24,000 nucleotides of DNA, from contig CAIOJS010000266.1 in the NCBI GenBank assembly GCA_903858655.1, forward strand, positions 1-24,000, in the 5' to 3' direction. A model generated the notes under the pieces. That model was not told where the DNA came from, did not search any database, and worked only from the letters and a program-made list of their open reading frames with translations. The translations under genes were made by a program, and so were the position numbers. Shown here in pieces: positions 126 through 22,376 of this stretch (position 1 is the first letter of the stretch; each line of letters opens with the position of its first letter). This DNA comes from an uncultured bacterium. Lineage in GTDB: Bacteria > Bacteroidota > Bacteroidia > Bacteroidales > CAIWKO01.

Positions 126-415
126 TGTTATTTATAAGTATATTATTCCGAAGTTCTCGAATTGCTACAAATTATATTTTGCAACCATAAATCAGTTCTT
201 GTTACCATTTTTATATTAGATGATTGTATTCACCCCGAAAAGAATAGAGTTTTATGATTTGGGTGTGTAGAGTCTTTCAATGTTTCTTAGTTTACTAAGT
301 GCCTTTTTCTCTCCTTGCTCCTTGTCCATTTTTTCTAAAAGTCTAAAGTCTAATACCCTACCCACTTTTTAAATATATATTTTTTATTTATTGATTGTAA
401 TTAAAAAACATTTCG

Positions 416-423
416 TAGTTTTG
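416..423 (+). promoter_or_regulatory. Putative Bacteroidota-type -7 promoter box (TAGTTTTG, consensus TAnnTTTG) for block 1
   Basis: Exact match to TAnnTTTG 37 bp upstream of the ATG at 460. An ATTG lies about 18 bp further upstream as a possible -33 element. Motif match only. Confidence 0.4.
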
Positions 424-459
424 CGAAATATATTAATTACTCATTTAAAAATTATAATC

Positions 460-702
460 ATGAAAATAAAAGTATTAGGAACGGGTTGTTCGAGTTGCAA
501 AACATTAGAGAAATCAGTAGTCAATGCCTTAGCTGAATTGAAAATAAAGGCAGATGTAGAAAAGGTGGAAGATATTCAAAAGATTATGGCGTATGGCATT
601 ATGCGCACTCCCACATTGATTATTGATGAAAAGATTGCTATTAGCGGAAGAGTTCCCGCCATGAAGGAACTGAAAGAAATCATCGAAAAATACAATTACT
701 AA
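460..702 (+). CDS. Small thioredoxin-fold redox-active disulfide protein (TM0996/MTH895-like)
   Basis: ATG at 460 gives MKIKVLGTGCSSCK... (80 aa). It has an N-terminal CxxC (GCSSC) and MRTPTLIIDEK, typical of the small 'redox-active disulfide protein 2' family that accompanies ArsR and ArsP-type permeases. The track start at 391 is TTG and lies upstream of the -7 box. Confidence 0.85.
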   Translation: MKIKVLGTGCSSCKTLEKSVVNALAELKIKADVEKVEDIQKIMAYGIMRTPTLIIDEKIAISGRVPAMKELKEIIEKYNY

Positions 703-703
703 T

Positions 704-1003
704 ATGGCAAAGAAACCGAAATTCACAGCACAGCAAGAGCAAATTGCACGTATAGCCAAAGCATTGAGCCATCCGGCTCGGGTCTATATACTCGAAAAGC
801 TGAACGGGCTGAATGCGTGCTGCACGAGCGGCGAAATGATAGGCGATATCCCCATTGCACGTTCCACCTTGTCGCAACATTTGAAAGAGCTAAAATATTC
901 AGGATTAATACAGGGAGAAATTGAACCACCGCAAATTAAATATTGCATCAACCGTCCGAATTGGGAGATAGCCAAGCTGATGCTGCTCGAATTCATGAAA
1001 TAA
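704..1003 (+). CDS. arsR: ArsR/SmtB-family metalloregulator (paralog 1)
   Basis: Winged-HTH signature HPARVYILEKL...STLSQHLKELKYSGLI. A vicinal Cys pair (NACCTSGEM) sits at the alpha3 position used by As(III)-sensing ArsR. The gene starts 1 nt after the upstream stop. Confidence 0.9.
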   Translation: MAKKPKFTAQQEQIARIAKALSHPARVYILEKLNGLNACCTSGEMIGDIPIARSTLSQHLKELKYSGLIQGEIEPPQIKYCINRPNWEIAKLMLLEFMK

Positions 1004-1053
1004 GTATTAAGCAAATCATTTCGTAATAAGCAAAAATAACAAAACGCACAGAT

Positions 1054-1593
1054 ATGAAAACACAAAACAAATTACAATTCGCAAGTATAGTCTACTTGTT
1101 GATGGTCCTGTTGTTTGCAGGATGCGGTTCGAGTGGAAATAAAACGGAAGTTCCTAAAAAAACAGACAGCATACGCGCCACCGAAAATCCTAAAGAAGCT
1201 TCGGTGCCGATAAAAGATACGGCGAACAAAGCTGCGGTAGCCCCTGTTAGTAATGATGTTTCGAAAGTTATGATTTATAATTTTCACGTAACGAATCGCT
1301 GCGCATCGTGCATCGCCATTGAAGAAGCCACCACGAAAACGCTAAAGACCTATTTTGAAAATGAACTGAAGCAAGGGCGAGTCAAACGGCGCATAGTAAA
1401 TGTGGATGACGAAGCCAATCAGAAAATTGCAGAGAAATATCAGGCTTTCGGTTCGGGCATTTTTGTCACACGTATATATAAAGGTAAAGAAACGACCACC
1501 GACCTCACGGGCGATGGTTTCAAATTTGCTAAAAACAAAGAAGAACGATTTATAGAAATCCTTAAAAATAAGATTCTCGAATATTTAAAATAA
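1054..1593 (+). CDS. Lipoprotein with C-terminal thioredoxin-like CxxC domain
   Basis: Signal peptide with lipobox LLFAGC. A Pro/Lys/Ala-rich linker is followed by FHVTNRCASCIAIE (CxxC) and a thioredoxin-like remainder. It is a paralog of the next ORF. Confidence 0.75.
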   Translation: MKTQNKLQFASIVYLLMVLLFAGCGSSGNKTEVPKKTDSIRATENPKEASVPIKDTANKAAVAPVSNDVSKVMIYNFHVTNRCASCIAIEEATTKTLKTYFENELKQGRVKRRIVNVDDEANQKIAEKYQAFGSGIFVTRIYKGKETTTDLTGDGFKFAKNKEERFIEILKNKILEYLK

Positions 1594-1599
1594 ACCGCC

Positions 1600-2028
1600 A
1601 TGAAAAAAATTGCATGTCTTATTATTATCCTTTTTTCGTTGACTACCTTTGCTCAACAAAAAGGCGACACCATCATTGCCAACAATCCAAGTAACTTAAA
1701 ATTGAAAGTGTTATATTTTCATGTAACCAATCGTTGTGCGACCTGCAGAAGCATTGAAGCCAATGTTAGAAAAACCTTGAATGATTATTTTCTCAATAAA
1801 ATAGAACTTGGCACGATAGATTTTTATGTGGTCAATTGCGAGTTGCCCGAAAACAAGGAACTCGCTAAAAAATATGACGCTTATGGAGCCACTTTAGCCA
1901 TAACAAGTTATATGAATGGAAAAGAGGCACGAACGGAAGATTTAAGCAATTGGGCATTCCAAAAAGCCCACGATGCTGAGGTGTTTGTTGCCGAACTAAA
2001 AACCAAAATAGAGGATTACATTAAATAA
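1600..2028 (+). CDS. Secreted thioredoxin-like CxxC protein (paralog of 1054-1593)
   Basis: Signal peptide MKKIACLIIILFSLTTFAQQ. It shares the motif YFHVTNRCATCRSIE and ...AKKYDAYGATL... with the upstream lipoprotein. Confidence 0.75.
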   Translation: MKKIACLIIILFSLTTFAQQKGDTIIANNPSNLKLKVLYFHVTNRCATCRSIEANVRKTLNDYFLNKIELGTIDFYVVNCELPENKELAKKYDAYGATLAITSYMNGKEARTEDLSNWAFQKAHDAEVFVAELKTKIEDYIK

Positions 2029-2038
2029 AAACAACAAA

Positions 2039-2755
2039 ATGGAAGTATTACAGAATTGGTTAGACGCCACGAATGTTCCCTTTCTATCAGCATTTATATT
2101 GGGCATCATGACAGCGATAAGCCCCTGTCCACTTGCCACCAATATAACCGCTATCGGGTTTATCAGCAAAGATATTGAACATAAAAAGAAAATATTTTTC
2201 AATGGATTGTGGTACACTTTGGGCAGAGCCATAAGTTATACTACTCTCGGTGTGATATTATATTTTGGAGCAAGCAAGTTTCATGTTGCCAAGTTCTTTC
2301 AACTGAATGGAGAAAAATTTTTAGGACCATTACTCATCATTGTGGGCATATTAATGTTCGACTTTATCCGAATAAAATTTCCGGGTTTTGGCAAATTGAG
2401 CGAACGGATGCAGCATAGAAAACGGAAAAACAATTGGTGGAGTGCTCTGCTTTTAGGGATAGTGTTTGCGCTTGCGTTTTGCCCCTACAGTGGTGTGCTG
2501 TATTTCGGCATGTTGATACCCGTCACCATCAGTAGTCCTTCGGGATTGTTTCTGCCTTTTGTGTTTGCTTTTGCCACCGGGTTGCCCGTAATTATCGTGG
2601 CATATCTGCTTGCCTTCAGTCTTTCGAGTATAGGTGGATTTTATCACAAGGTGAAGATATTTGAGAAATGGTTTCGACGTATTGTGGCGGTTGCATTTAT
2701 TATTGTCGGATTTTATTATGTATATATCTTTTACTTTAAAGACATGATACAATGA
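2039..2755 (+). CDS. DsbD_2/CcdA-like transmembrane thiol-disulfide (electron transfer) protein
   Basis: About 6 hydrophobic helices, with Cys-Pro motifs in helices (AISPCPLATN and ALAFCPYSG) as in the cytochrome c biogenesis/DsbD transmembrane family. The stop overlaps the next start (ATGA at 2752-2755). Confidence 0.7.
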   Translation: MEVLQNWLDATNVPFLSAFILGIMTAISPCPLATNITAIGFISKDIEHKKKIFFNGLWYTLGRAISYTTLGVILYFGASKFHVAKFFQLNGEKFLGPLLIIVGILMFDFIRIKFPGFGKLSERMQHRKRKNNWWSALLLGIVFALAFCPYSGVLYFGMLIPVTISSPSGLFLPFVFAFATGLPVIIVAYLLAFSLSSIGGFYHKVKIFEKWFRRIVAVAFIIVGFYYVYIFYFKDMIQ

Positions 2756-3789
2756 GCCTAAACTTTTTCAAAAGTCCGAAAGGCAAAATAATACTGCCAC
2801 TTTTGTTGATTCCAATTTGGTATCTGATATATCATTTTTTGCAGCCTTTCACCGATTGGTTGATATTTTCTGCATTGGGCATGACCAAAGGAAATCATTT
2901 GGCAGAAGCACTTTGGTTTTTTATCTTTGAGTTTCCAAAGGTAATGCTGCTTTTGACATTGATAATTTTCTTTGTTGGCATCCTGCGCACTTTCTTCACT
3001 CCCGAACGAACGCGCAAAGCTTTGGAAGGAAAAAAGACTTTTACAGGAAATGTGATGGCTTCCTTGCTTGGCATTGTCACCCCTTTTTGCTCCTGCTCGG
3101 CTATTCCCTTGTTTTTAGGTTTTGTTGAAGCCGGTGTTCCTTTAGGTGTTACGTTCTCGTTTTTGATCGCAGCGCCCATGATCAACGAGGTGGCGGTGGT
3201 GCTTTTATATGGCATGTTTGGCTGGAAAGTAGCATTAATATATATAGGTACAGGTTTAGTAATTGCTATAACTGCGGGATGGGTCATTGGTAAATTGAAA
3301 CTCGAACGTTGGGTTGAACCTTGGGTGTATGAAACCAAAGTAGGGCACAATGCCTTGGGAGAAGAAAAAGTACATTTCAGCGATAGAATTAAATTTGGAT
3401 ACGATGCCGTGAAAGAAATTGTGGGCAAGGTATGGCTGTATGTAGCTTTGGGAATCGCGGTGGGTGCAGGGGCACATGGATATGTTCCTGCGGAATTCAT
3501 GGCTTCGTTGATGGGCAAAGATGTATGGTATGCCGTGCCGCTTTCCGTTTTGATTGGCATTCCTTTATATTCAAATGCCGCAGGCATAGTTCCTATCGTT
3601 TCAGTTTTAATCGAAAAAGGAGCCTCCCTCGGAACTTCGCTGGCTTTCATGATGTCGGTGATTGGTTTGTCCTTGCCCGAAATGGTGATTCTACGAAAAG
3701 TACTGAAACTGCCTTTAATATTCACATTTATTGCTGTTGTTGGTTGTGGTATTATGATAGTTGGATTTTTATTTAATTGGATATTTTAA
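2752..3789 (+). CDS. Permease of the ArsP / PF03773 type with conserved CSC motif
   Basis: Polytopic membrane protein with TPFCSCSAIPLF in an early helix. As I recall, this vicinal-Cys motif is characteristic of ArsP-type organoarsenical efflux permeases. The family usually pairs with the small redox-active disulfide protein and ArsR. Confidence 0.75.
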   Translation: MSLNFFKSPKGKIILPLLLIPIWYLIYHFLQPFTDWLIFSALGMTKGNHLAEALWFFIFEFPKVMLLLTLIIFFVGILRTFFTPERTRKALEGKKTFTGNVMASLLGIVTPFCSCSAIPLFLGFVEAGVPLGVTFSFLIAAPMINEVAVVLLYGMFGWKVALIYIGTGLVIAITAGWVIGKLKLERWVEPWVYETKVGHNALGEEKVHFSDRIKFGYDAVKEIVGKVWLYVALGIAVGAGAHGYVPAEFMASLMGKDVWYAVPLSVLIGIPLYSNAAGIVPIVSVLIEKGASLGTSLAFMMSVIGLSLPEMVILRKVLKLPLIFTFIAVVGCGIMIVGFLFNWIF

Positions 3790-3947: not shown

Positions 3948-3955
3948 TATGTTTG
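3948..3955 (+). promoter_or_regulatory. Putative -7 promoter box (TATGTTTG) for block 2
   Basis: Exact TAnnTTTG match 21 bp upstream of the ATG at 3976. It overlaps the alternative ATG at 3949, which argues for 3976 as the true start. An imperfect palindrome, AATTTACAAGCTTGAATAAATT (3880-3901), lies about 50 bp upstream. Confidence 0.4.
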
Positions 3956-3975
3956 CGTCATTAAACATTAGAACC

Positions 3976-4311
3976 ATGACCAACAATAAATCCAAACGAT
4001 TCGAAGCTGATCAACAGAACATTGCGCTCTGTTGCAAGGTGCTTTCTCACCCTGCTAGAATTGCAATAATTCAGTTGCTTGCCGAAAAAAAGGAGATACG
4101 CACGGGTGATATATCCGATTTTTTGCCCATAAGCCGCACCACCGTCTCCCAACATCTCAAAGAACTCAAAGAAATGGACATCATAAAAGGCACTATTGAT
4201 GGGCTAAAAATACATTATTGTCTGAATATGGAAAAGCTCAACGAGATAAAAGAAATTTTCAACAGCTTTTTTGATAGTTCCATAAGTCCGTTTTGCTGCT
4301 CATGCGATTAA
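3976..4311 (+). CDS. arsR: ArsR/SmtB-family metalloregulator (paralog 2) with N-terminal CC and C-terminal CCSC
   Basis: HPARIAIIQLLAEKKEIRTGDISDFLPISRTTVSQHLKELKEMDIIKG. There is a vicinal Cys pair in ALCCKV and a C-terminal tail SPFCCSCD. The start could alternatively be 3949. Confidence 0.88.
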   Translation: MTNNKSKRFEADQQNIALCCKVLSHPARIAIIQLLAEKKEIRTGDISDFLPISRTTVSQHLKELKEMDIIKGTIDGLKIHYCLNMEKLNEIKEIFNSFFDSSISPFCCSCD

Positions 4312-4341: not shown

Positions 4342-5163
4342 ATGAAAAAAATTAATCTGATTATCGGTGCAATCATTATGATTTCGCTCTCGTTGAGCGC
4401 AATGGCACATAACTCTTCTCCCGTATCGGGGAAAGCAGTTACTCATAAAAGTAAAGCAAATGGTGTATCTTTCAATGCTGCCACCAATCCTGCAGCCGAT
4501 TTGGAAAAAGCTAAAAAAGAAGGCAAATCGGTCTTCTTGGTGATAACAGGAACCGGGGCAATTGGCGTAGAAAAAATGGTAACGATAGCTAAAGCTGCCA
4601 ATGCAAAAGTGCTTAAGTCTGTAGTTGTTCAAATGAACAAAGATGATGCTGCCAACAGTGCTTTGGTGAGCAAGTTGGGCGTTTCGGGTGTGCAAGTACC
4701 TCTTATCTTGGTGATTTCGCCCAAAGGTGTTGCCGTGGCAGGTTTCAATACTACACAAGCCACAACCGAACTGCTGGTTCAAGCTATTCCTTCGCCCAAG
4801 CAGGATGAGGTGTTGTTTGCTATTTCGCAAAAGAAACCAGTGTTTTTGGTGATTTCAAAAAAAGGTTTGACCGACAAGACTGCGCTCATAGCCAATTGCA
4901 ATACGGCAAGCACCAAAATGACAATTAAACCCGTAATAGTGGAATTTGATTTTGCCGACACCAAAGAAGCTGCTTTTCTGAAACAATTAGCAGTTGCAGA
5001 TGTTACTACAAAAACACGCATCATCGTAATCAATGCATCTGGGCAAATTGCCGACCGCTATGAGGGCACGGCAACCGAAGCTGCTTTGATGGCTTCGGCA
5101 ACCAAAGTGGTGTTGAGCAGTTGTTGTCCGGGTGGCAGCAGCAGCGGTTGTGGTAAAAAATAA
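4342..5163 (+). CDS. Secreted two-module protein (thioredoxin-like folds without CxxC) with Cys-rich C-terminal tail
   Basis: Signal peptide ...LSLSAMA-HN. Two internally similar modules (KSVFLVITG...VPLILVISPKG and KPVFLVISKKG...RIIVINASG). The tail is SSCCPGGSSSGCGKK. I recognise no family. Confidence 0.7.
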   Translation: MKKINLIIGAIIMISLSLSAMAHNSSPVSGKAVTHKSKANGVSFNAATNPAADLEKAKKEGKSVFLVITGTGAIGVEKMVTIAKAANAKVLKSVVVQMNKDDAANSALVSKLGVSGVQVPLILVISPKGVAVAGFNTTQATTELLVQAIPSPKQDEVLFAISQKKPVFLVISKKGLTDKTALIANCNTASTKMTIKPVIVEFDFADTKEAAFLKQLAVADVTTKTRIIVINASGQIADRYEGTATEAALMASATKVVLSSCCPGGSSSGCGKK

Positions 5164-5169
5164 TTTGGT

Positions 5170-6390
5170 ATGAATATCAGAAAACTTGTCTGGCTTGAGT
5201 TTAAACAGCACAAGTCACAATTGATTTCAGGTTTGTTAGCAATTACTTTAGGAATTGCCGTAATCGTTGGAATTAGGTCTATTTCAGTCGTGTCAGAGAA
5301 AGCAGTGGCTGTAAACCTTGATAATTTGGGTGCCAACATATTGGTGTTACCCCAAGCCTCCAATGTGGATAATTATTACGCTGCCGATATTGATGCTCCC
5401 ACCATGCCCGAAGAATATGTGGACAGAATTGTTTCGTCCAACTTAGAAGGTGTGGACAATTTGTCGCCCAAACTGACGCGAAGAATTAAGGTGGGCACAG
5501 AAAATGTTGTGCTCACAGGTATCATGCCGAAGAATGAAATCACCTCCAAACCTATGTGGCAACAGTCTGGTTTGTTGGGCAATGATTTGAAAGCAAGTTG
5601 CGCCCCCACCAATGCAGTGAACCAAAGCAATGGCTATGAAGATGAAAAATTGAAACGTAAGGTTATCGATTCTTTGGGAGCAGATGAATATTTGCTCGGT
5701 TCCACAATTGCACGAAAATTAAAATTGGCGGATGGCGGCAGTGTTGTTATTCTTGGCGAGAAATTCAAAGTGAGCAGAGTGCTCAACGAAACAGGCACCG
5801 TTGACGACGACCGCATATTCATACATCTGCGCAAAGCTCAAGAATTGTTGAAAATTCCCAATCAAGTGAGTGCCATCGAAATTATGGGGTGTTGCAATGC
5901 CATTTCCGACGGACTGTTGAGCAAATTGCGCAATGTTTTGCCCGATACACGAATCACCACTATTGGTCAAATCGTAGCAACGCAAATTCAAACCAACAAA
6001 ATGATGAATAAGGTGTCGCTCATTTTTCTTATCATTATCATATTTGTAGGTGGTATATCCATCGGTAATTTTATGTGGGCAAACATCAACGAGCGCCGCA
6101 AAGAGATTGGAATGTTGCGTATGATAGGATTTAATAAGGCAACGATTTATCGAATGATATTAGCCAAAGCCTTCGTATTGGGCATCATCGGAGGCTTAAT
6201 CGGTTATATCCTTGGCACGGCAGCAGGCGTTTGGTTGGGTCCCGAATTGGCGGGGCTTCCCGTGCAGCCGATTCCAAGCCTCATCTTGATTTCTTTATGT
6301 ATATCTATAGTTGTATCACTTTTAGGTTCCATTCTCCCGGCATATCTAGCGGGACGAATTGACCCTTTTAAAAACATGCAGGAGGTGTAA
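5170..6390 (+). CDS. ABC transporter permease, FtsX/MacB-type
   Basis: N-terminal TM helix (LISGLLAITLGIAVIVGI), a roughly 250-aa extracytoplasmic domain, then three C-terminal helices with an FtsX-like segment (RRKEIGMLRMIGFNKATIYRMIL...). Confidence 0.88.
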   Translation: MNIRKLVWLEFKQHKSQLISGLLAITLGIAVIVGIRSISVVSEKAVAVNLDNLGANILVLPQASNVDNYYAADIDAPTMPEEYVDRIVSSNLEGVDNLSPKLTRRIKVGTENVVLTGIMPKNEITSKPMWQQSGLLGNDLKASCAPTNAVNQSNGYEDEKLKRKVIDSLGADEYLLGSTIARKLKLADGGSVVILGEKFKVSRVLNETGTVDDDRIFIHLRKAQELLKIPNQVSAIEIMGCCNAISDGLLSKLRNVLPDTRITTIGQIVATQIQTNKMMNKVSLIFLIIIIFVGGISIGNFMWANINERRKEIGMLRMIGFNKATIYRMILAKAFVLGIIGGLIGYILGTAAGVWLGPELAGLPVQPIPSLILISLCISIVVSLLGSILPAYLAGRIDPFKNMQEV

Positions 6391-7056
6391 ATGATTCTAA
6401 AAACAAACAATCTCTGTAAACAATATCAACATAAAGATGTACCTGTTGATGCTTTGAATCATGTAAGTTTTGACGTGAACGAAGGCGATTTTGTTACCAT
6501 CACGGGGGCATCGGGTTCGGGCAAGACTACATTATTATTATCCCTTGCTGGATTGATTCAAGCCTCTTCGGGCGAAATACGCATCATGGACTTTGATGTG
6601 GTGCAAGCTTCCGACCGTAAACTCTCTGATTTCAGACGGAAGCATATCGGCTTTGTGATGCAAAGTTTTGCCTTGATTCCATATCTTACGGCTATCGAAA
6701 ATGTGATGCTACCTTTAGCGATATCAAAGGGTAAGAAAGAACAAAAATATCAAAAGGCATTGGCGTTGCTCAAATTGGTTGATTTGGAGAACAGGAAGAA
6801 TCATTTACCGAGTGAACTTTCTGCCGGACAACAGCAAAGGGTGGCGATTGCAAGAGCTTTGGTGAATTCACCTACCTTAATATTAGCAGATGAACCAACA
6901 GGGAACTTAGACCCGAGTCTTTCTACCGATATTCTGAATCTTCTGAAGAAAATAAATAAAGAAGAGAAAATTACGATACTTATGGTTACGCATAGCCCTT
7001 TGGCAGCGGAATATGGAAATCGAAAAATCAATCTTCATAATGGTTGCATAAATTAA
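6391..7056 (+). CDS. ABC transporter ATP-binding protein (MacB/LolD/FtsE-like)
   Basis: Walker A GASGSGKTT, signature LSAGQQQRVAIARAL, Walker B LILADEPTGNLD, H-loop MVTHS. The start abuts the permease stop. Confidence 0.93.
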   Translation: MILKTNNLCKQYQHKDVPVDALNHVSFDVNEGDFVTITGASGSGKTTLLLSLAGLIQASSGEIRIMDFDVVQASDRKLSDFRRKHIGFVMQSFALIPYLTAIENVMLPLAISKGKKEQKYQKALALLKLVDLENRKNHLPSELSAGQQQRVAIARALVNSPTLILADEPTGNLDPSLSTDILNLLKKINKEEKITILMVTHSPLAAEYGNRKINLHNGCIN

Positions 7057-7496
7057 AAGTGGAAACAAAACAGACTACAACATATTTCACCTCTCATGGG
7101 TTCTTTTCGGCAGGATTTTTTAATCTAACGCCCAAAGAAGCTTTTGAGGAAGCACAAAACAAAACTGCAATTGTGGATGTGCGAGAAGAAGATTTTACTG
7201 CTTTTAAATGTTTTGATGTGCCCACTGTTATCTATATACCCTATTCTCAAATGGTTTCGCGCTTTGAGGAACTTCCTCAAGATATACCTTTGATTATTGC
7301 CGATTCTGTTGGTCTGAGAAGTAAGGAAGCCATGATGTTTATAACTAGTAAAGGCTTTGAGAATATTGCAAATATGGCAGGTGGCATGGTTGAATGGGAG
7401 CGCGATGGTTTGCCTCTTGTCTTGGATGCTACCGAAAGGCTTGATGGGTCGTGTATGTGTCAATTGAAACCAAGAAATAAATTAAAAAATAAATAG
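7044..7496 (+). CDS. Rhodanese-homology domain protein with Asp in place of the catalytic Cys
   Basis: AIVDVREEDF...PLIIADSVGLRSKEAMMFITSKGFENIANMAGGMVEWERDGLPL aligns to the rhodanese fold. The active-site loop reads ADSVGLRS where CxxGxRS is expected. The C-terminal region has GSCMCQ. It overlaps the ATPase gene by 13 nt. Confidence 0.8.
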   Translation: MHKLKVETKQTTTYFTSHGFFSAGFFNLTPKEAFEEAQNKTAIVDVREEDFTAFKCFDVPTVIYIPYSQMVSRFEELPQDIPLIIADSVGLRSKEAMMFITSKGFENIANMAGGMVEWERDGLPLVLDATERLDGSCMCQLKPRNKLKNK

Positions 7497-7500
7497 AACA

Positions 7501-7917
7501 ATGAAAGTACTAATAATTTGTACAGGCAACACCTGTAGAAGTCAGATGGCAGAGGGATTTTTGAAATCTTTTGATGCGCAACTTGAAGTATATTCTGCAG
7601 GAACCAAAGCGGAGAAGCAAGTCAATCTTTATGCGGTGAAAGCCATGAGTGAGTTGGGCATTGACATCAGCCAACAACATCCGAAACATGTGGATGAGTT
7701 TCTGGGAGTTGATTTTGATTATGTGATTACTGTTTGCGACGGTGCCAAAGAAATCTGTCCGGTTTTCACAGGTAAAGTAAAGCAACGTATGCATATTGGC
7801 TTTGATGACCCTGCCGATGCAAAGGGAAGTGAGGAGGAAATCATGCCGATATATAGAAGGGTGCGGGATGAGATAAAAGAACGGTTTCATACCTTTTATA
7901 TGAATGACATTCAATAG
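7501..7917 (+). CDS. arsC: Arsenate reductase, LMW-PTP family (thioredoxin-coupled type)
   Basis: The P-loop VLIICTGNTCRSQMAEG (CX5R), and VITVCDGAKEICPVF supplying the two downstream Cys, match the S. aureus pI258 ArsC Cys10/Cys82/Cys89 pattern. Confidence 0.93.
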   Translation: MKVLIICTGNTCRSQMAEGFLKSFDAQLEVYSAGTKAEKQVNLYAVKAMSELGIDISQQHPKHVDEFLGVDFDYVITVCDGAKEICPVFTGKVKQRMHIGFDDPADAKGSEEEIMPIYRRVRDEIKERFHTFYMNDIQ

Positions 7918-7987
7918 CAAATGAATAAATAAAACAACGAAGATAATTACATAACAACCTATCAACTGAATACTAAATTTTAAAACA

Positions 7988-19195: not shown

Positions 19196-19309
19196 ACAAG
19201 TGCGCAAAAGTAATGAAAAATTTCTTGTTTTTCAGAAGCGGATAACAGAAAAACATCCGATGCACATCCGCTATCTAATAAACAATTCGTATTTTTGCAA
19301 AAAAACTGC

Positions 19310-20410
19310 ATGCCGAACAAATCTAAACATAAGAAACTACCCCCATTATTTGTGATAAAAGCCACGATGGGCTTGCGTAATTTCTTGGTAAAGATTACAA
19401 AAGGAATGTTGCCCGCCAATTTTGTCTTGTTGGAAGAAGCTTCCGCCATTTGGAAGGCAAAATCCATAGCGGTAGCCGCCCAATTAAATATTTCGGACTA
19501 TTTGGAGGAAAAACCCCTGCCGATTTCCCAATTAGCAGCCCTCGCGGAATGCCATGAAGACGCCTTGTATCGTATGATGAGGGCTTTGGCAGGAGAAGGC
19601 ATCTACAAAGAACTTGCGGATAAACATTTTACAAACACTAAGCTCTCGAAAGCCATTCAAACGAAAGAAGATTCGGTGAAGTACTTCGTGATGCATCATG
19701 TGGGCGTGAACAATTGGGATTTGGTGGGCGATTTGTATAATTGTGTGAAGACCGGCGAGAATGCCATCACCCATAAATTCGGAATGGAGCCCTTCGAGTA
19801 TCTGGAAAAGCATCCCGAAAAAAATAATATCTTCAACAAAGCTATGACAGAGACCGCAGAATTGTCGGGAAGCATATTCCTGAATGCATATAACTTCGGC
19901 AAATATAAAAAAATCATAGATATTGGTGGCGGGCAGGGGCATTTGTTGGCGCAGATATTGAGAAAATACCCAGCCACAGAGGCAATTTTGTTCGACCAAG
20001 CACATGTGGTGAGCGATGCACATCTTCTTCTAAAAAAATATAAAGTTGATGATCGTTGTAGCATCGTTGAAGGAAGTTTTTTCTCATCCATACCACCAAA
20101 TGGCGATCTTTATATCTTAAAAAACATACTGCACGATTGGGATGACTCAACATCCGCAGAAATTCTTAAAAATATTCGCGCAGCCATGCTTCCTCATAGC
20201 AAATTACTGTTGATTGAAACTATTATCAAACCAAATAATAAACCTTCGTTTGGCAAGTTTGTTGACTTACAAATGCTTATTGGAACTTCAGGTGGGAAGG
20301 AAAGAACGCTTGAAGAATTTACGAAGCTTTTGACCGAGGCGGGATTCGCCTTCCGACGTGTTATTGAAAATGCCACGCCTTTCAGCTTTATAGAAGCTGT
20401 CACAAATTAA
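19310..20410 (+). CDS. Class I SAM-dependent O-methyltransferase (COMT/Methyltransf_2 type with dimerisation domain)
   Basis: SAM motif IIDIGGGQGHLLAQILRKYP, then GDLYILKNILHDWDD. The N-terminal wHTH-like dimerisation region is AAQLNISDYLEEKPLPISQLAAL. The start is uncertain: ATG at 19310 or 19367, and a TATTTTTG box at 19290-19297 favours the later one. Confidence 0.85.
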   Translation: MPNKSKHKKLPPLFVIKATMGLRNFLVKITKGMLPANFVLLEEASAIWKAKSIAVAAQLNISDYLEEKPLPISQLAALAECHEDALYRMMRALAGEGIYKELADKHFTNTKLSKAIQTKEDSVKYFVMHHVGVNNWDLVGDLYNCVKTGENAITHKFGMEPFEYLEKHPEKNNIFNKAMTETAELSGSIFLNAYNFGKYKKIIDIGGGQGHLLAQILRKYPATEAILFDQAHVVSDAHLLLKKYKVDDRCSIVEGSFFSSIPPNGDLYILKNILHDWDDSTSAEILKNIRAAMLPHSKLLLIETIIKPNNKPSFGKFVDLQMLIGTSGGKERTLEEFTKLLTEAGFAFRRVIENATPFSFIEAVTN

Positions 20411-20426
20411 TTTCTTACGCATAAAA

Positions 20427-22376
20427 ATGAAAATACTCCTGATAAGTCCCGGCTCGCCGGACGAAATTGATAATTTGATTATCCGCCAAATTCCTTATCT
20501 GTTTGCCAAAGCATTTACGGCGCCTCACGCAATCGCCACGGTAGCGGCATTGACACCGCTGGAACACGAGGTTACGCTCCATGATGAATACATGAAAGGT
20601 CCGGTGGACGATTTTTTGCCCGGAACCGACTTCGACATCATCGGGGTGAGCATCACTTCCAATCAACTGCAACGAAGTTTGAAGATAGCACAGTTGTGTA
20701 AGAAATTTTGTCCGAAATCATTATTAGTGGTGGGCGGCATCGGCGTCGAGACGCTCATCTATAAAAATAAGGAAGACATTGATGTGGTTTTTCATGGCGA
20801 AGCGGAAGACACCTGGGGCAGATTTTTGGAGGATTACAAGACGGGCACATATCAGCGGGTGTACAAAAACGTTTCGAAGCCCGACATGACCAAAACTCCG
20901 CCGCCCCGTTGGGATTTGATAGCCAAAGATATTTGCGCTTACAATTCCGTTTCGGTGCAAACCACGCGCGGATGTCCTTACGACTGTAGTTTTTGCGATG
21001 TTATCTATACTTACGGTCGAAAACCGCGCAGCAAATCAATCGAACAGGTGTTGGAAGAAATCCGTCGCTTGAATGATTTGAAAGTGATGATGGTTTTCAT
21101 TGCGGATGATAATTTTGCGGGAGATAGGAAGTATGTGAAAGATCTCTTGCGGCAGTTAATCGTGTTAAACAACTCATTTAAAGTGCCGATGGGCTTCTTT
21201 ACCCAATTAGATATCACGGTGGCAGAGGACGATGAACTGCTGGAGCTGTTAGCCGATGCCAACTTCTATAACTTGATGATAGGAATTGAATCGGTGAACG
21301 ATGATTCGCTGAAGGATATGAACAAAAAGCAAAATATCGGTGTGTCGGCAACGGCGGCTATTAAAAAAATTCAGTCGTATGGCATGGCGGTGTTGGTTCA
21401 CATGATTATTGGCGCAGATTCTGACGATGAAACGGTGTTCGACAAGACCGCAAATTTCGTGCAAGAGGCAAACATCATCTTCCATATATGTCATCCTTTG
21501 GCAGCGCCTCCGGGCACGAAGATGTGGTATGACTATAAACGGCAAGGACGCTTGGTGACCACCGAGCATGAGGAAGCGAGCGACAAAATGGATATCATCA
21601 CCAATATAATTCCCAAGAATTTGTCGCGCATCGAACTGTTTGAGGGGTTGGCTGACTATTGGGATAAGATTTTTGTGCATGATAAGTTTCTCGAACGTGC
21701 GTTGGGCTACGTAAAAGGCATTACCTACACTCCCAAGGCTAAGCCGCCCGGGTTTTCGTCCTTTTGGGCGATGCGGAAAATGATGGGAAGTATGTTTATG
21801 TATTTCATGTTTAAAATCCCTAAGAAAGATCGGCAGACTTTCTTTAAAATTTTGCGCGCTACCGATAAAAAAAAGCTGGGATTTTTGATGCCGAAGATTG
21901 TTTATATGTACACTTTTTTCATTATAGATTGCAAACGCTCTGCGTATGATGCAAAAGTGGCGCGCGAAATGGCACAGTGGGAGCGCGACAATCCCACGAA
22001 GGTGAAAGTGGATTCGTGCGACATCCCCGTTTCGGAGAAAATTCGCGAAAATGGCAAACATCTGGTGGCGGAAGCCTACAAATATATGCGCAGCCACACG
22101 CCCTTGAAAGAAATCATTTATAAAACTATCGTCGCCGCTATGCTCGACTTCAGCGACCGCTTTGGGGATACATTTGAAGGCATGGACGACTTCCATAGAG
22201 AACATATTCGCGACATTTGCGACCGAGCGATGCCCAACGTGATAGCCACAACCGCAGAAACCACAGCAGAATTTCCCGAGCAACAGCCTGCGGGTTTCAC
22301 ACGCGAGATAATGGATGCATTGGACAATGCGGTTCGTTACCGAAATATGTATAAGGAGGAAGTTTTAAGTGCCTAA
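20427..22376 (+). CDS. B12-binding-domain radical SAM protein with DUF4070-like C-terminal extension (649 aa)
   Basis: N-terminal Rossmann-like B12-binding region (KILLISPG...IIGVSITS...LLVVGGIG). Radical SAM cluster motif TTRGCPYDCSFCDV. The long helical C-terminal region is as in class B radical SAM/DUF4070 proteins. The gene starts 16 nt after the methyltransferase. Confidence 0.88.
   Translation: MKILLISPGSPDEIDNLIIRQIPYLFAKAFTAPHAIATVAALTPLEHEVTLHDEYMKGPVDDFLPGTDFDIIGVSITSNQLQRSLKIAQLCKKFCPKSLLVVGGIGVETLIYKNKEDIDVVFHGEAEDTWGRFLEDYKTGTYQRVYKNVSKPDMTKTPPPRWDLIAKDICAYNSVSVQTTRGCPYDCSFCDVIYTYGRKPRSKSIEQVLEEIRRLNDLKVMMVFIADDNFAGDRKYVKDLLRQLIVLNNSFKVPMGFFTQLDITVAEDDELLELLADANFYNLMIGIESVNDDSLKDMNKKQNIGVSATAAIKKIQSYGMAVLVHMIIGADSDDETVFDKTANFVQEANIIFHICHPLAAPPGTKMWYDYKRQGRLVTTEHEEASDKMDIITNIIPKNLSRIELFEGLADYWDKIFVHDKFLERALGYVKGITYTPKAKPPGFSSFWAMRKMMGSMFMYFMFKIPKKDRQTFFKILRATDKKKLGFLMPKIVYMYTFFIIDCKRSAYDAKVAREMAQWERDNPTKVKVDSCDIPVSEKIRENGKHLVAEAYKYMRSHTPLKEIIYKTIVAAMLDFSDRFGDTFEGMDDFHREHIRDICDRAMPNVIATTAETTAEFPEQQPAGFTREIMDALDNAVRYRNMYKEEVLSA

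Follow-up and report, generated by a model that had tools for sequence, protein, structure and literature searches.

Textbook accounts of bacterial arsenic resistance stop at the inner membrane: Acr3, ArsB, and ArsAB pump arsenite to the periplasm, and its onward exit is assumed to be passive. Arsenite can be bound by three sulfur ligands, as in the S3 site formed by Cys12, Cys13, and Cys18 of the thioredoxin-fold protein ArsD and likewise in several ArsR repressors. ATP-binding cassette (ABC) systems of type VII work by mechanotransmission, with no transmembrane substrate path, and every characterized one acts with a dedicated partner in the periplasm, as in FtsEX-EnvC, LolCDE-LolA, MacAB-TolC, and YbbAP-TesA (PMC12646458). 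Here, we describe a three-gene module in 24,000 nucleotides of contig CAIOJS010000266.1 (assembly GCA_903858655.1) from an uncultured Bacteroidales bacterium, a stretch that is called the window below. The module encodes an exported thioredoxin-fold protein with a cysteine-bearing tail, called X here, followed by an FtsX-type permease and its ATPase. Judged from its sequences, X with its type VII ABC pair is probably a so far undescribed system by which anaerobes use ATP to handle arsenic in the cell envelope. X is a thioredoxin-fold protein with an ArsD-like cysteine pair and a third cysteine, and type VII machines act with a periplasmic partner; for these reasons, we propose that the module may relay As(III) between thiols in the periplasm, under the control of ArsR and with ATP supplying the drive through mechanotransmission. 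The probability that we assign to this reading is roughly 0.45.

The three genes lie on the + strand, and their positions and spacing agree with those of a first-pass annotation made from the sequence of the window. Their features are the following.

4342-5163, + strand: X gene, open reading frame of 273 aa
4342-4410, + strand: signal peptide of X, residues 1 to 23, read from the sequence (cleavage between AMA and HN); a low-complexity linker follows to about residue 48
4486-4791, + strand: thioredoxin-fold domain 1 of X, residues 49 to 150, from DSSP elements, with ITGTGAIG at the CxxC site
4792-5109, + strand: thioredoxin-fold domain 2 of X, residues 151 to 256, from hhalign to domain 1
5110-5163, + strand: disordered C-terminal arm of X, VLSSCCPGGSSSGCGKK, with C261-C262 at 5122-5127 and C270 at 5149-5151 (CC-x7-C)
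5170-6390, + strand: permease gene, open reading frame of 406 aa, 6 nt after X
5302-5964, + strand: periplasmic domain of the permease, about residues 45 to 265 (~220 aa), from the AlphaFold2 model
5599-5601, + strand: invariant periplasmic Cys144 of the permease (ASC motif), from alignments, in a low-confidence loop
5890-5895, + strand: invariant vicinal Cys241-Cys242 of the permease (EIMGCC), at the start of a helix in the last beta-alpha-beta unit before the stalk of transmembrane helix 2
6391-7056, + strand: ABC ATPase gene, open reading frame of 221 aa, 0-nt gap, its start codon abutting the permease stop

The N terminus of X, MKKINLIIGAIIMISLSLSAMA followed by HN, is a typical type I signal peptide. 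Such a signal is found in ~72% of the X family, and in ~28% a lipobox-like motif replaces it. The AlphaFold2 model of X, built on 30 homologs, has a mean predicted local distance difference test (pLDDT) score of 85.5, which exceeds 90 for residues 50 to 255, stays below 50 for residues 1 to 43, and drops after residue 256. It consists of two consecutive beta-alpha thioredoxin folds, with a disordered N-terminal linker and C-terminal tail. A Foldseek search of the PDB returned only tandem-thioredoxin proteins (QSOX1 Trx1-Trx2, Eps1p, Pyrococcus furiosus PDO, PDI bb′, and calsequestrin) at E values of ~5e-6. The two domains also resemble each other in sequence, with 27% identity and an E value of 5e-8 in BLASTP and a probability of 97.5% and an E value of 6e-12 in hhalign.

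Neither domain of X contains a CxxC motif, and X was rejected as a thiol-disulfide oxidoreductase for this reason, its thioredoxin folds notwithstanding. Loss of the redox site is indicated by an alignment of domain 1 with a 169-aa thioredoxin-like protein of Pedobacter (28% identity, E value of 1e-8), where WCSWC falls opposite a gap and TGAIG in X. The four Pedobacter hits were themselves rejected as family members, being single-domain CxxC proteins outside any ars or FtsX context. Cys186 of X (4897-4899), which is present in at least 90% of the sequences, lies in the helix spanning residues 178 to 192 of domain 2, off the CxxC position. The first-pass annotation had described an exported protein with two internally similar thioredoxin-like modules that lack CxxC and a tail ending in SSCCPGGSSSGCGKK, and this description holds in full.

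The family conserves the cysteines of this tail. Each of the 120 close homologs of X has a C-terminal tail that is rich in Gly and Ser and contains three cysteines, and among the 244 members that are 230 aa or longer, the last 30 residues contain at least three cysteines in 221 and exactly three in 199. The main spacings in these 244 proteins are CC-x7-C (62 members), CC-x8-C (35), and C-x3-C-x4-C (18). Related loci, numbered with the prefix L, were obtained as contigs fetched by exact protein look-up and pattern scans and were annotated by tblastn with the window proteins. The tail-coding segment (5112-5168) is the sole part of the X-FtsX-ABC genes that cannot be aligned at the nucleotide level to L006 or L007. 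The tail of X in L006 reads GCAPGACGGKSSCSPSATPANCGTKK, and the tails of the window, L006, and L007 differ in length and sequence with at least three cysteines kept in each; in L023 and the ‘Deltaproteobacteria’ loci L024 and L025, the tails end in CCPDGSKKGCG and CCPSGSTKGCG. A tail that is hypervariable with its cysteine count held therefore suits a flexible ligand-binding arm and not a folded element. Three family members that lack the Cys3 tail were checked (His-rich tails in P0308 and P0324 and none in P0319), and none of the three adjoins an FtsX gene.

A profile search of 1.84 billion representatives of 50%-identity clusters retrieved 660 members of the X family at E ≤ 1e-3 and 138 at E ≤ 1e-30. 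A word-indexed search gave 134 homologs, nearly all from metagenome-assembled genomes (MAGs) of Bacteroidales or Bacteroidia and all named ‘hypothetical.’ X has no match in Pfam or NCBIfam, which leaves it outside every characterized non-metal family of these collections, and some of its homologs match PF13848 (Thioredoxin_6). Neither database has a name for the X family, which spans hundreds of 50%-identity clusters, or for the module. The cluster look-ups found no cultured host, and the MAG entries are named only ‘hypothetical protein’ or ‘ABC transporter permease.’ Membership in the ArsD family (PF06953) was considered and rejected, as X has no Pfam match at E ≤ 0.01; arsD and arsA are additionally present in some loci, and genuine ArsD genes stand separate from X in L005, L013, and L015.

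The permease and the ATPase are members of the type VII (MacB/FtsX) ABC superfamily. The permease matches FtsX (PF02687, 2.7e-21) and MacB_PCD (PF12704, 1.4e-10) in Pfam, and its AlphaFold2 model (pLDDT of 70) has helices at residues 15 to 52, 265 to 319, 323 to 356, and 370 to 396, that is, four transmembrane helices, of which the first two extend into stalks that flank the periplasmic domain. Its Foldseek neighbors are LolE/LolC, MacB, Spr0695, HrtB, YbbP, YtrF, and BceB, with LolE, MacB, and HrtB at E values of 1e-15 to 1e-10. By sequence, the permease matches solved structures essentially over its transmembrane part only (MacB, 1e-14), with a weak match to LolE/LolC over residues 171 to 361. 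The ATPase (ABC_tran, 1.3e-34) has an intact Walker A motif (GASGSGKTT), signature (LSAGQQQR), and Walker B motif (ILADEP). The earlier assignment of an FtsX/MacB-type permease with a large extracytoplasmic domain, paired with its ATPase, is thus borne out by the Pfam matches and the model.

Membership in a described type VII family was examined with the NCBIfam equivalogs, and both proteins score below every curated cut-off for LolCDE, MacB, FtsEX, and DevCA, so that no lipoprotein or peptide substrate unrelated to metals is assigned to them. LolCDE was rejected at 41.7 bits against a cut-off of 362 for lolCE and 231 against 307.75 for LolD. FtsEX was rejected at 23.8 against 255 bits for FtsX_Gneg, with a periplasmic domain (~220 aa) of the size found in MacB. 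MacAB-TolC was rejected at 43.7 against 966 bits, with the nucleotide-binding domain encoded by a separate gene and no HlyD or OEP protein among the window open reading frames scanned or in the gene tables of the related loci.

These scores bear on the possibility that X is the cargo, the ABC pair being a dedicated Lol-like extractor or sorter of X as a lipoprotein. The lipobox-like motif in ~28% of the family and the LolE/LolC structures at the top of the permease matches would fit such a role. However, X of the window and ~72% of its homologs have type I signal peptides, the LolCE and LolD scores fall far under their cut-offs, and the conserved cysteines of the permease would be left unexplained, which makes X as cargo very unlikely.

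These cysteines, Cys144 and the pair Cys241-Cys242, are invariant in 28 homologs of the permease that are 66 to 100% identical to it and in 28 locus entries (27 fetched loci and the window). Only three locus entries, the window (Y), L016 (T), and L018 (I), lack a fourth cysteine, which the others have at position 174. The permease is far more conserved than X, since its homologs are still 66 to 68% identical in MAGs labelled Deltaproteobacteria and Planctomycetota, whereas the identity of X over the same loci is 41 to 87%. In an Ignavibacteria MAG, the permease homolog is 76% identical.

The genes around the module link it to arsenic. Profile searches with a narrowed alignment of the X family yielded 13 true loci in GTDB genomes, and a metagenome scan yielded at least three. 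Rearrangements apart, every related locus that extends far enough has one X gene, or in some cases a tandem of two, immediately upstream of FtsX-ABC. Directly upstream of X, there is usually an ArsR-family gene, a homolog of the ArsR2 of the window in almost all related loci. The genes found alongside include arsC, arsM, acr3, arsD/arsA, arsP, and a set of Trx3, ArsF, and ArsG. The carriers comprise Bacteroidales, Prolixibacteraceae, Saccharicrinis, a ‘Deltaproteobacteria’ MAG, and unclassified contigs, and the order ArsR-X-FtsX-ABC is identical in L023 and in the ‘Deltaproteobacteria’ loci L024 and L025. The two rearranged loci have acr3 and arsR between ABC and X (L030) and an inserted AbiEii cassette (L031). 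A 303-aa protein of L031 that was considered as an outer-membrane candidate was rejected and is a second X paralog.

This synteny can be set against the idea of a generic MacB-type export pump for peptides, antibiotics, or lipids that is merely sited in arsenic islands, with a Cys tail that is incidental or structural. FtsX-type pumps are common and are usually annotated generically, as would be expected in that case, but the gene order is kept across phyla with ArsR at its head, and the cysteine motifs are kept in both proteins. A generic pump therefore has very little probability.

The same neighborhoods lend some weight to the main rival of the relay proposed above, in which the ABC pair, like Lol, HrtBA, or YbbAP, extracts its substrate from the membrane and loads it onto X; the components are those of the relay, but the flow runs from the permease to X. 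The substrates would be mono- or dimethylated arsenic [MAs(III) or DMAs(III)], aromatic or thio-arsenicals, or neutral Hg-thiol complexes taken from the outer leaflet of the inner membrane. Most loci contain a methylating arsM or hgcAB together with arsP, of the organoarsenical permease family, and the nearest structural neighbors of the permease in Foldseek are the membrane extractors LolCDE, HrtBA, and YbbAP (PMC12646458). Against this role, three thiolates suit As(III) better than MAs(III), which takes two, or DMAs(III), which takes one; the permease cysteines are periplasmic and not intramembrane; and the direction of flow is indistinguishable in silico. Extraction followed by loading of X is on balance unlikely.

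In the window, the module is headed by a repressor gene of the ArsR family.

3949-4311, + strand: ArsR-family repressor ArsR2 (HTH_5, 4e-10), at the head of the operon

ArsR2 has a CC motif near its N terminus and a CCSC motif near its C terminus, and the C-terminal cysteines recur in its homologs. The start listed for this gene is probably wrong, and translation probably begins at the in-frame ATG of position 3976, because TATGTTTG at 3948-3955, which resembles the Bacteroidota -7 promoter motif TAnnTTTG, overlaps the first ATG, and because the resulting ArsR2 of 111 aa has the length of its homologs. The gaps between genes from ArsR2 to acr3 range from -13 to +88 nt, which fits a single operon. 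Scans of the window for sigma-70 promoters and intrinsic terminators gave matches at chance level only, and the pattern TTTG-N-TAnnTTTG has no match ahead of the operon; the operon boundaries are for this reason based on gene spacing only.

A second ArsR-headed block lies upstream (391-3789) and encodes Trx3, ArsR, two ArsF-family CxxC proteins, ArsG/DsbD_2, and ArsP. It is kept with the module in many loci, and it suggests a dedicated route by which these arsenic islands send reducing power out to thiols in the periplasm.

Several other neighbors recur. A rhodanese-domain protein (7044-7496), 3′ of the ATPase gene, apparently has Asp at the catalytic Cys site (IIADSVGLRS) and ends in CMC; it is conserved in L003, L006, L007, L009, and L010. 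Downstream of acr3 (12440-14620), a protein with three Ig-like DUF1573 domains is followed by a membrane protein of the MauE/DoxX family, the same pair following acr3 in L003 and L006, and small DUF1573 proteins adjoin the module in L001, L003, L005, and L031. Farther away, downstream of a SufB/D gene on the + strand (19295-22376), an O-methyltransferase gene lies beside one for a B12-binding radical SAM enzyme (DUF4070), apparently unrelated to the module.

Between arsC and acr3, the window also contains hgcAB, preceded by the gene of a small cysteine-rich protein.

7988-8272, + strand: 94-aa protein read from the sequence, with a single transmembrane helix and a predicted external tail with CCPG-x4-C (CCPG at 8186, SGCCPGSGQKSC)

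The recurrence of CCPG in this protein, which had been pointed out in the first-pass annotation, was found again; in a six-frame translation of the window, CCP[GS] occurs three times, and two of the occurrences are in the genes of X and of the 94-aa protein. The cysteine clusters of the 94-aa protein are on both sides of the membrane, with CGCQDGCC inside and CCPGSGQKSC and SCCPK outside. Its gene overlaps by 4 nt a DsbD/CcdA-like gene with the transmembrane motifs FTCACN and SSACCNP, the two together covering 7988-8973, and this pair precedes hgcAB in all three hgcAB loci, namely the window, L015 (17718-18769), and L027 (from ~11519). The 94-aa gene is part of the hgcAB cassette and not of the conserved triad. 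Together with its DsbD/CcdA-like neighbor, it could serve HgcAB in uptake or handover, in a MerT-like way.

Comparison with the nearest relative places the module in arsenic operons generally. L006, a contig from a Kiruna MAG, is collinear with the window over ~14 kb at 88 to 93% nucleotide identity. The interval between arsC and acr3 is occupied in the window by the genes of the 94-aa protein, the DsbD-like protein, HgcA, and HgcB (7886-10376, 2.5 kb) and in L006 by that of a 276-aa ArsM (7573-8518, 0.95 kb). This is a clean swap of arsM and hgcAB at a single operon position, and it bears on the debate over the native role of HgcAB and on its ArsR-type regulation. Since hgcAB occurs in only three of the loci annotated, the window included, X-FtsX-ABC belongs to arsenic operons generally and not specifically to hgcAB.

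These observations also bear on a mercury-specific function, in which the tail of X would bind Hg(II) and supply it to HgcAB or protect methylation from it. Such a function would be in keeping with the position of hgcAB, which shares the predicted operon and begins 2 kb farther downstream, and with the CCPG-x4-C motif of the 94-aa protein. It is highly improbable, given that ars genes are present in all loci and hgcAB only in the window, L015, and L027, and that L006 keeps X-FtsX-ABC with arsM in the place of hgcAB. The first-pass annotation had suggested that the module extracts or expels a thiol-bound metal or metalloid. The invariant permease cysteines, the strict ars synteny, and the outer-membrane genes with cysteine motifs described below lend this suggestion partial support, the link being to arsenic operons and not to hgcAB.

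No membrane-fusion (MacA/HlyD) or TolC-type (OEP) protein was found among the 26 open reading frames of the window scanned against Pfam, and tblastn with the outer-membrane barrel of the related loci gave no match in the window. The earlier statement that no outer-membrane partner is present thus stands for the window. It does not extend to the family, for a gene pair encoding a barrel and a CxxC lipoprotein is found beside the module in L003 (7330-8663), L008, L011, L014, and L030, and L032 has the barrel gene only, its N terminus cut by the end of the locus. The barrel, Phenol_MetA_deg-like and of ~318 aa, has a mature N terminus of QCC(T/S/G)AGNP in all five full-length copies, and the lipoprotein, of ~125 aa, has W(A/G)CxxC and one further cysteine. 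A tblastn search of the window found neither of them.

A variant of the X tail was found in L034, where positions 6697-6720 read ASC-TGA-GPGGCK-TAA. The TGA takes the place of the second cysteine of the CC pair, the frame is kept, and FtsX-ABC follows downstream; the protein is the same on three contigs. This TGA may encode selenocysteine, giving a C-U variant of the tail.

Cysteines in so many components speak against the possibility that the ABC pair regulates or remodels X, in the manner of FtsEX-EnvC, and that X is an ATP-switched holdase or shield of envelope thiol proteins during arsenic stress. Partner activation has precedents in FtsEX-EnvC and YbbAP-TesA (PMC12646458), and the redox-inactive thioredoxin folds of PDI b/b′ and calsequestrin, which are Foldseek neighbors of X, bind proteins. 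The Cys triads of both partners and the Cys-bearing outer-membrane genes at the locus would nevertheless be left unexplained, and a role as holdase appears quite improbable.

The periplasmic relay preferred here would work as follows, where metal binding, contact between X and the permease, the direction of transfer, and the role of ATP are what we infer. The module would handle As(III), and possibly MAs(III), Sb(III), and Hg(II), outside the cytoplasmic membrane. X would be the periplasmic carrier, lipid-anchored in about one-quarter of the species, with its redox-dead thioredoxin-fold domains as the docking body and its C-terminal arm offering three thiolates (CC-x7-C) in an S3 geometry for the capture of As(III). 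It would dock on the periplasmic domain of a homodimeric permease bearing C144 and C241-C242, and the metalloid would move between the thiols of X and those of the permease by ligand exchange. Binding and hydrolysis of ATP would then cause the mechanotransmission movement that breaks the site, frees the metalloid outward, and resets the carrier. Where present, the QCC barrel and the CxxC lipoprotein would probably prolong the relay across the outer membrane. The net effect would be that arsenite coming from Acr3 or from outside is kept from reentering the cell and from poisoning envelope thiols. The full extension, an ATP-powered trans-envelope relay for As(III) from the permease cysteines through the Cys3 arm of X, with selenocysteine in some cases, to a Cys-tipped outer-membrane barrel, is possible but doubtful.

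Several points weigh against these proposals. As(OH)3, a small molecule without charge, is expected to exit through porins, so that the need for ATP is not obvious. To our knowledge, the substrates of type VII systems are lipids, lipoproteins, peptides, heme, and partner enzymes, and never a metalloid. An outer-membrane or adaptor gene is lacking in the window and in most loci, all carriers of the module are MAGs or metagenome contigs, the model of the permease has only moderate confidence, and the permease cysteines could form structural disulfides. For the selenocysteine variant, the UGA of L034 is followed at ~23 nt by an 8-bp AU-rich hairpin whose loop contains G, but the stability of this hairpin does not exceed that of shuffled sequences (z = 1.0), and no selenocysteine insertion sequence was matched in L034 by Rfam.

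Searches of the literature on hgcAB and arsR neighborhoods, on FtsX/MacB in ars operons, on type VII ABC systems and arsenic, and on periplasmic arsenite metallochaperones found no description of the module, in agreement with the first-pass annotation, which knew of none for ars or hgc loci. An ArsR-headed, ATP-driven envelope module in several anaerobe phyla would supply the missing periplasmic step of arsenic resistance, and the type VII ABC field would gain a novel type of partner and another class of substrate. The trans-envelope relay, if true, would make X the first chaperone for arsenic in the periplasm and its ABC pair the first ABC machine with a metalloid as envelope substrate, and it would add a fifth functional class to the type VII ABC systems. 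The presence of the module in arsM- or hgcAB-bearing operons of methylating Bacteroidota bears on the trafficking of thiophilic metals and metalloids around the methylation enzymes. A flexible thiol arm that docks on a Cys-bearing periplasmic domain is readily testable by mutagenesis.

PDI b/b′, QSOX Trx2, and calsequestrin, the best Foldseek matches, share with X a tandem thioredoxin fold without CxxC; they differ in having only 8 to 17% identity and TM-scores of 0.24 to 0.32, in being eukaryotic or archaeal with unrelated roles, and in lacking the Cys3 tail. Swinging-arm carriers of the SoxY type are similar in the Gly-rich flexible C-terminal arm with a reactive cysteine on an extracytoplasmic carrier. 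In the SAO locus, CC/CU dipeptides were proposed as heavy-metal contacts, and thioredoxin-like, ArsP-family, and ABC components are present (Haft and Gwadz, bioRxiv 10.1101/2022.07.06.499078). The ABC system of that locus, in contrast, is of the importer type with a substrate-binding protein and not FtsX-type, nothing in the locus is homologous to X, and the paper mentions neither FtsX nor MacB nor CCPG (Haft and Gwadz, bioRxiv 10.1101/2022.07.06.499078).

The proposed function has parallels in CusF-CusCBA and NosL-NosDFY, in which an energized membrane machine receives a soft metal from a small carrier in the periplasm. In NosDFY, the periplasmic transfer of metal is powered by ATP that is hydrolyzed in the cytoplasm. 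The folds and transporter classes of these systems are, however, unrelated to those of the module, the proposed ligand is a metalloid and not Cu, and genes for resistance-nodulation-division, adaptor, and outer-membrane factor proteins are absent in most of the loci.

ArsD-ArsA is similar to X in its non-redox thioredoxin fold, its vicinal cysteine pair plus third cysteine, and its location in ars operons, and ArsD hands As(III) to an ATP-driven pump. In its proposed function, the module resembles an ArsD-ArsA system shifted to the periplasm. X differs from ArsD in being secreted and two-domain, in carrying the Cys triad on a disordered C-terminal arm, and in having as partner a type VII ABC system and not ArsA/ArsB. 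The type VII partner systems LolCDE-LolA, FtsEX-EnvC, YbbAP-TesA, and MacAB-TolC share with the module a permease of four transmembrane helices, a large Porter/Sabre-like domain, a separate LolD/MacB-like ATPase, and an adjacent partner, and periplasmic mechanotransmission is expected here as well. The periplasmic domain of the module aligns by sequence to no solved member of that group, and the module is further set apart from it by a partner that is a Cys-tailed tandem-thioredoxin protein, by the invariant cysteines, and by an ArsR head and ars genes around it.

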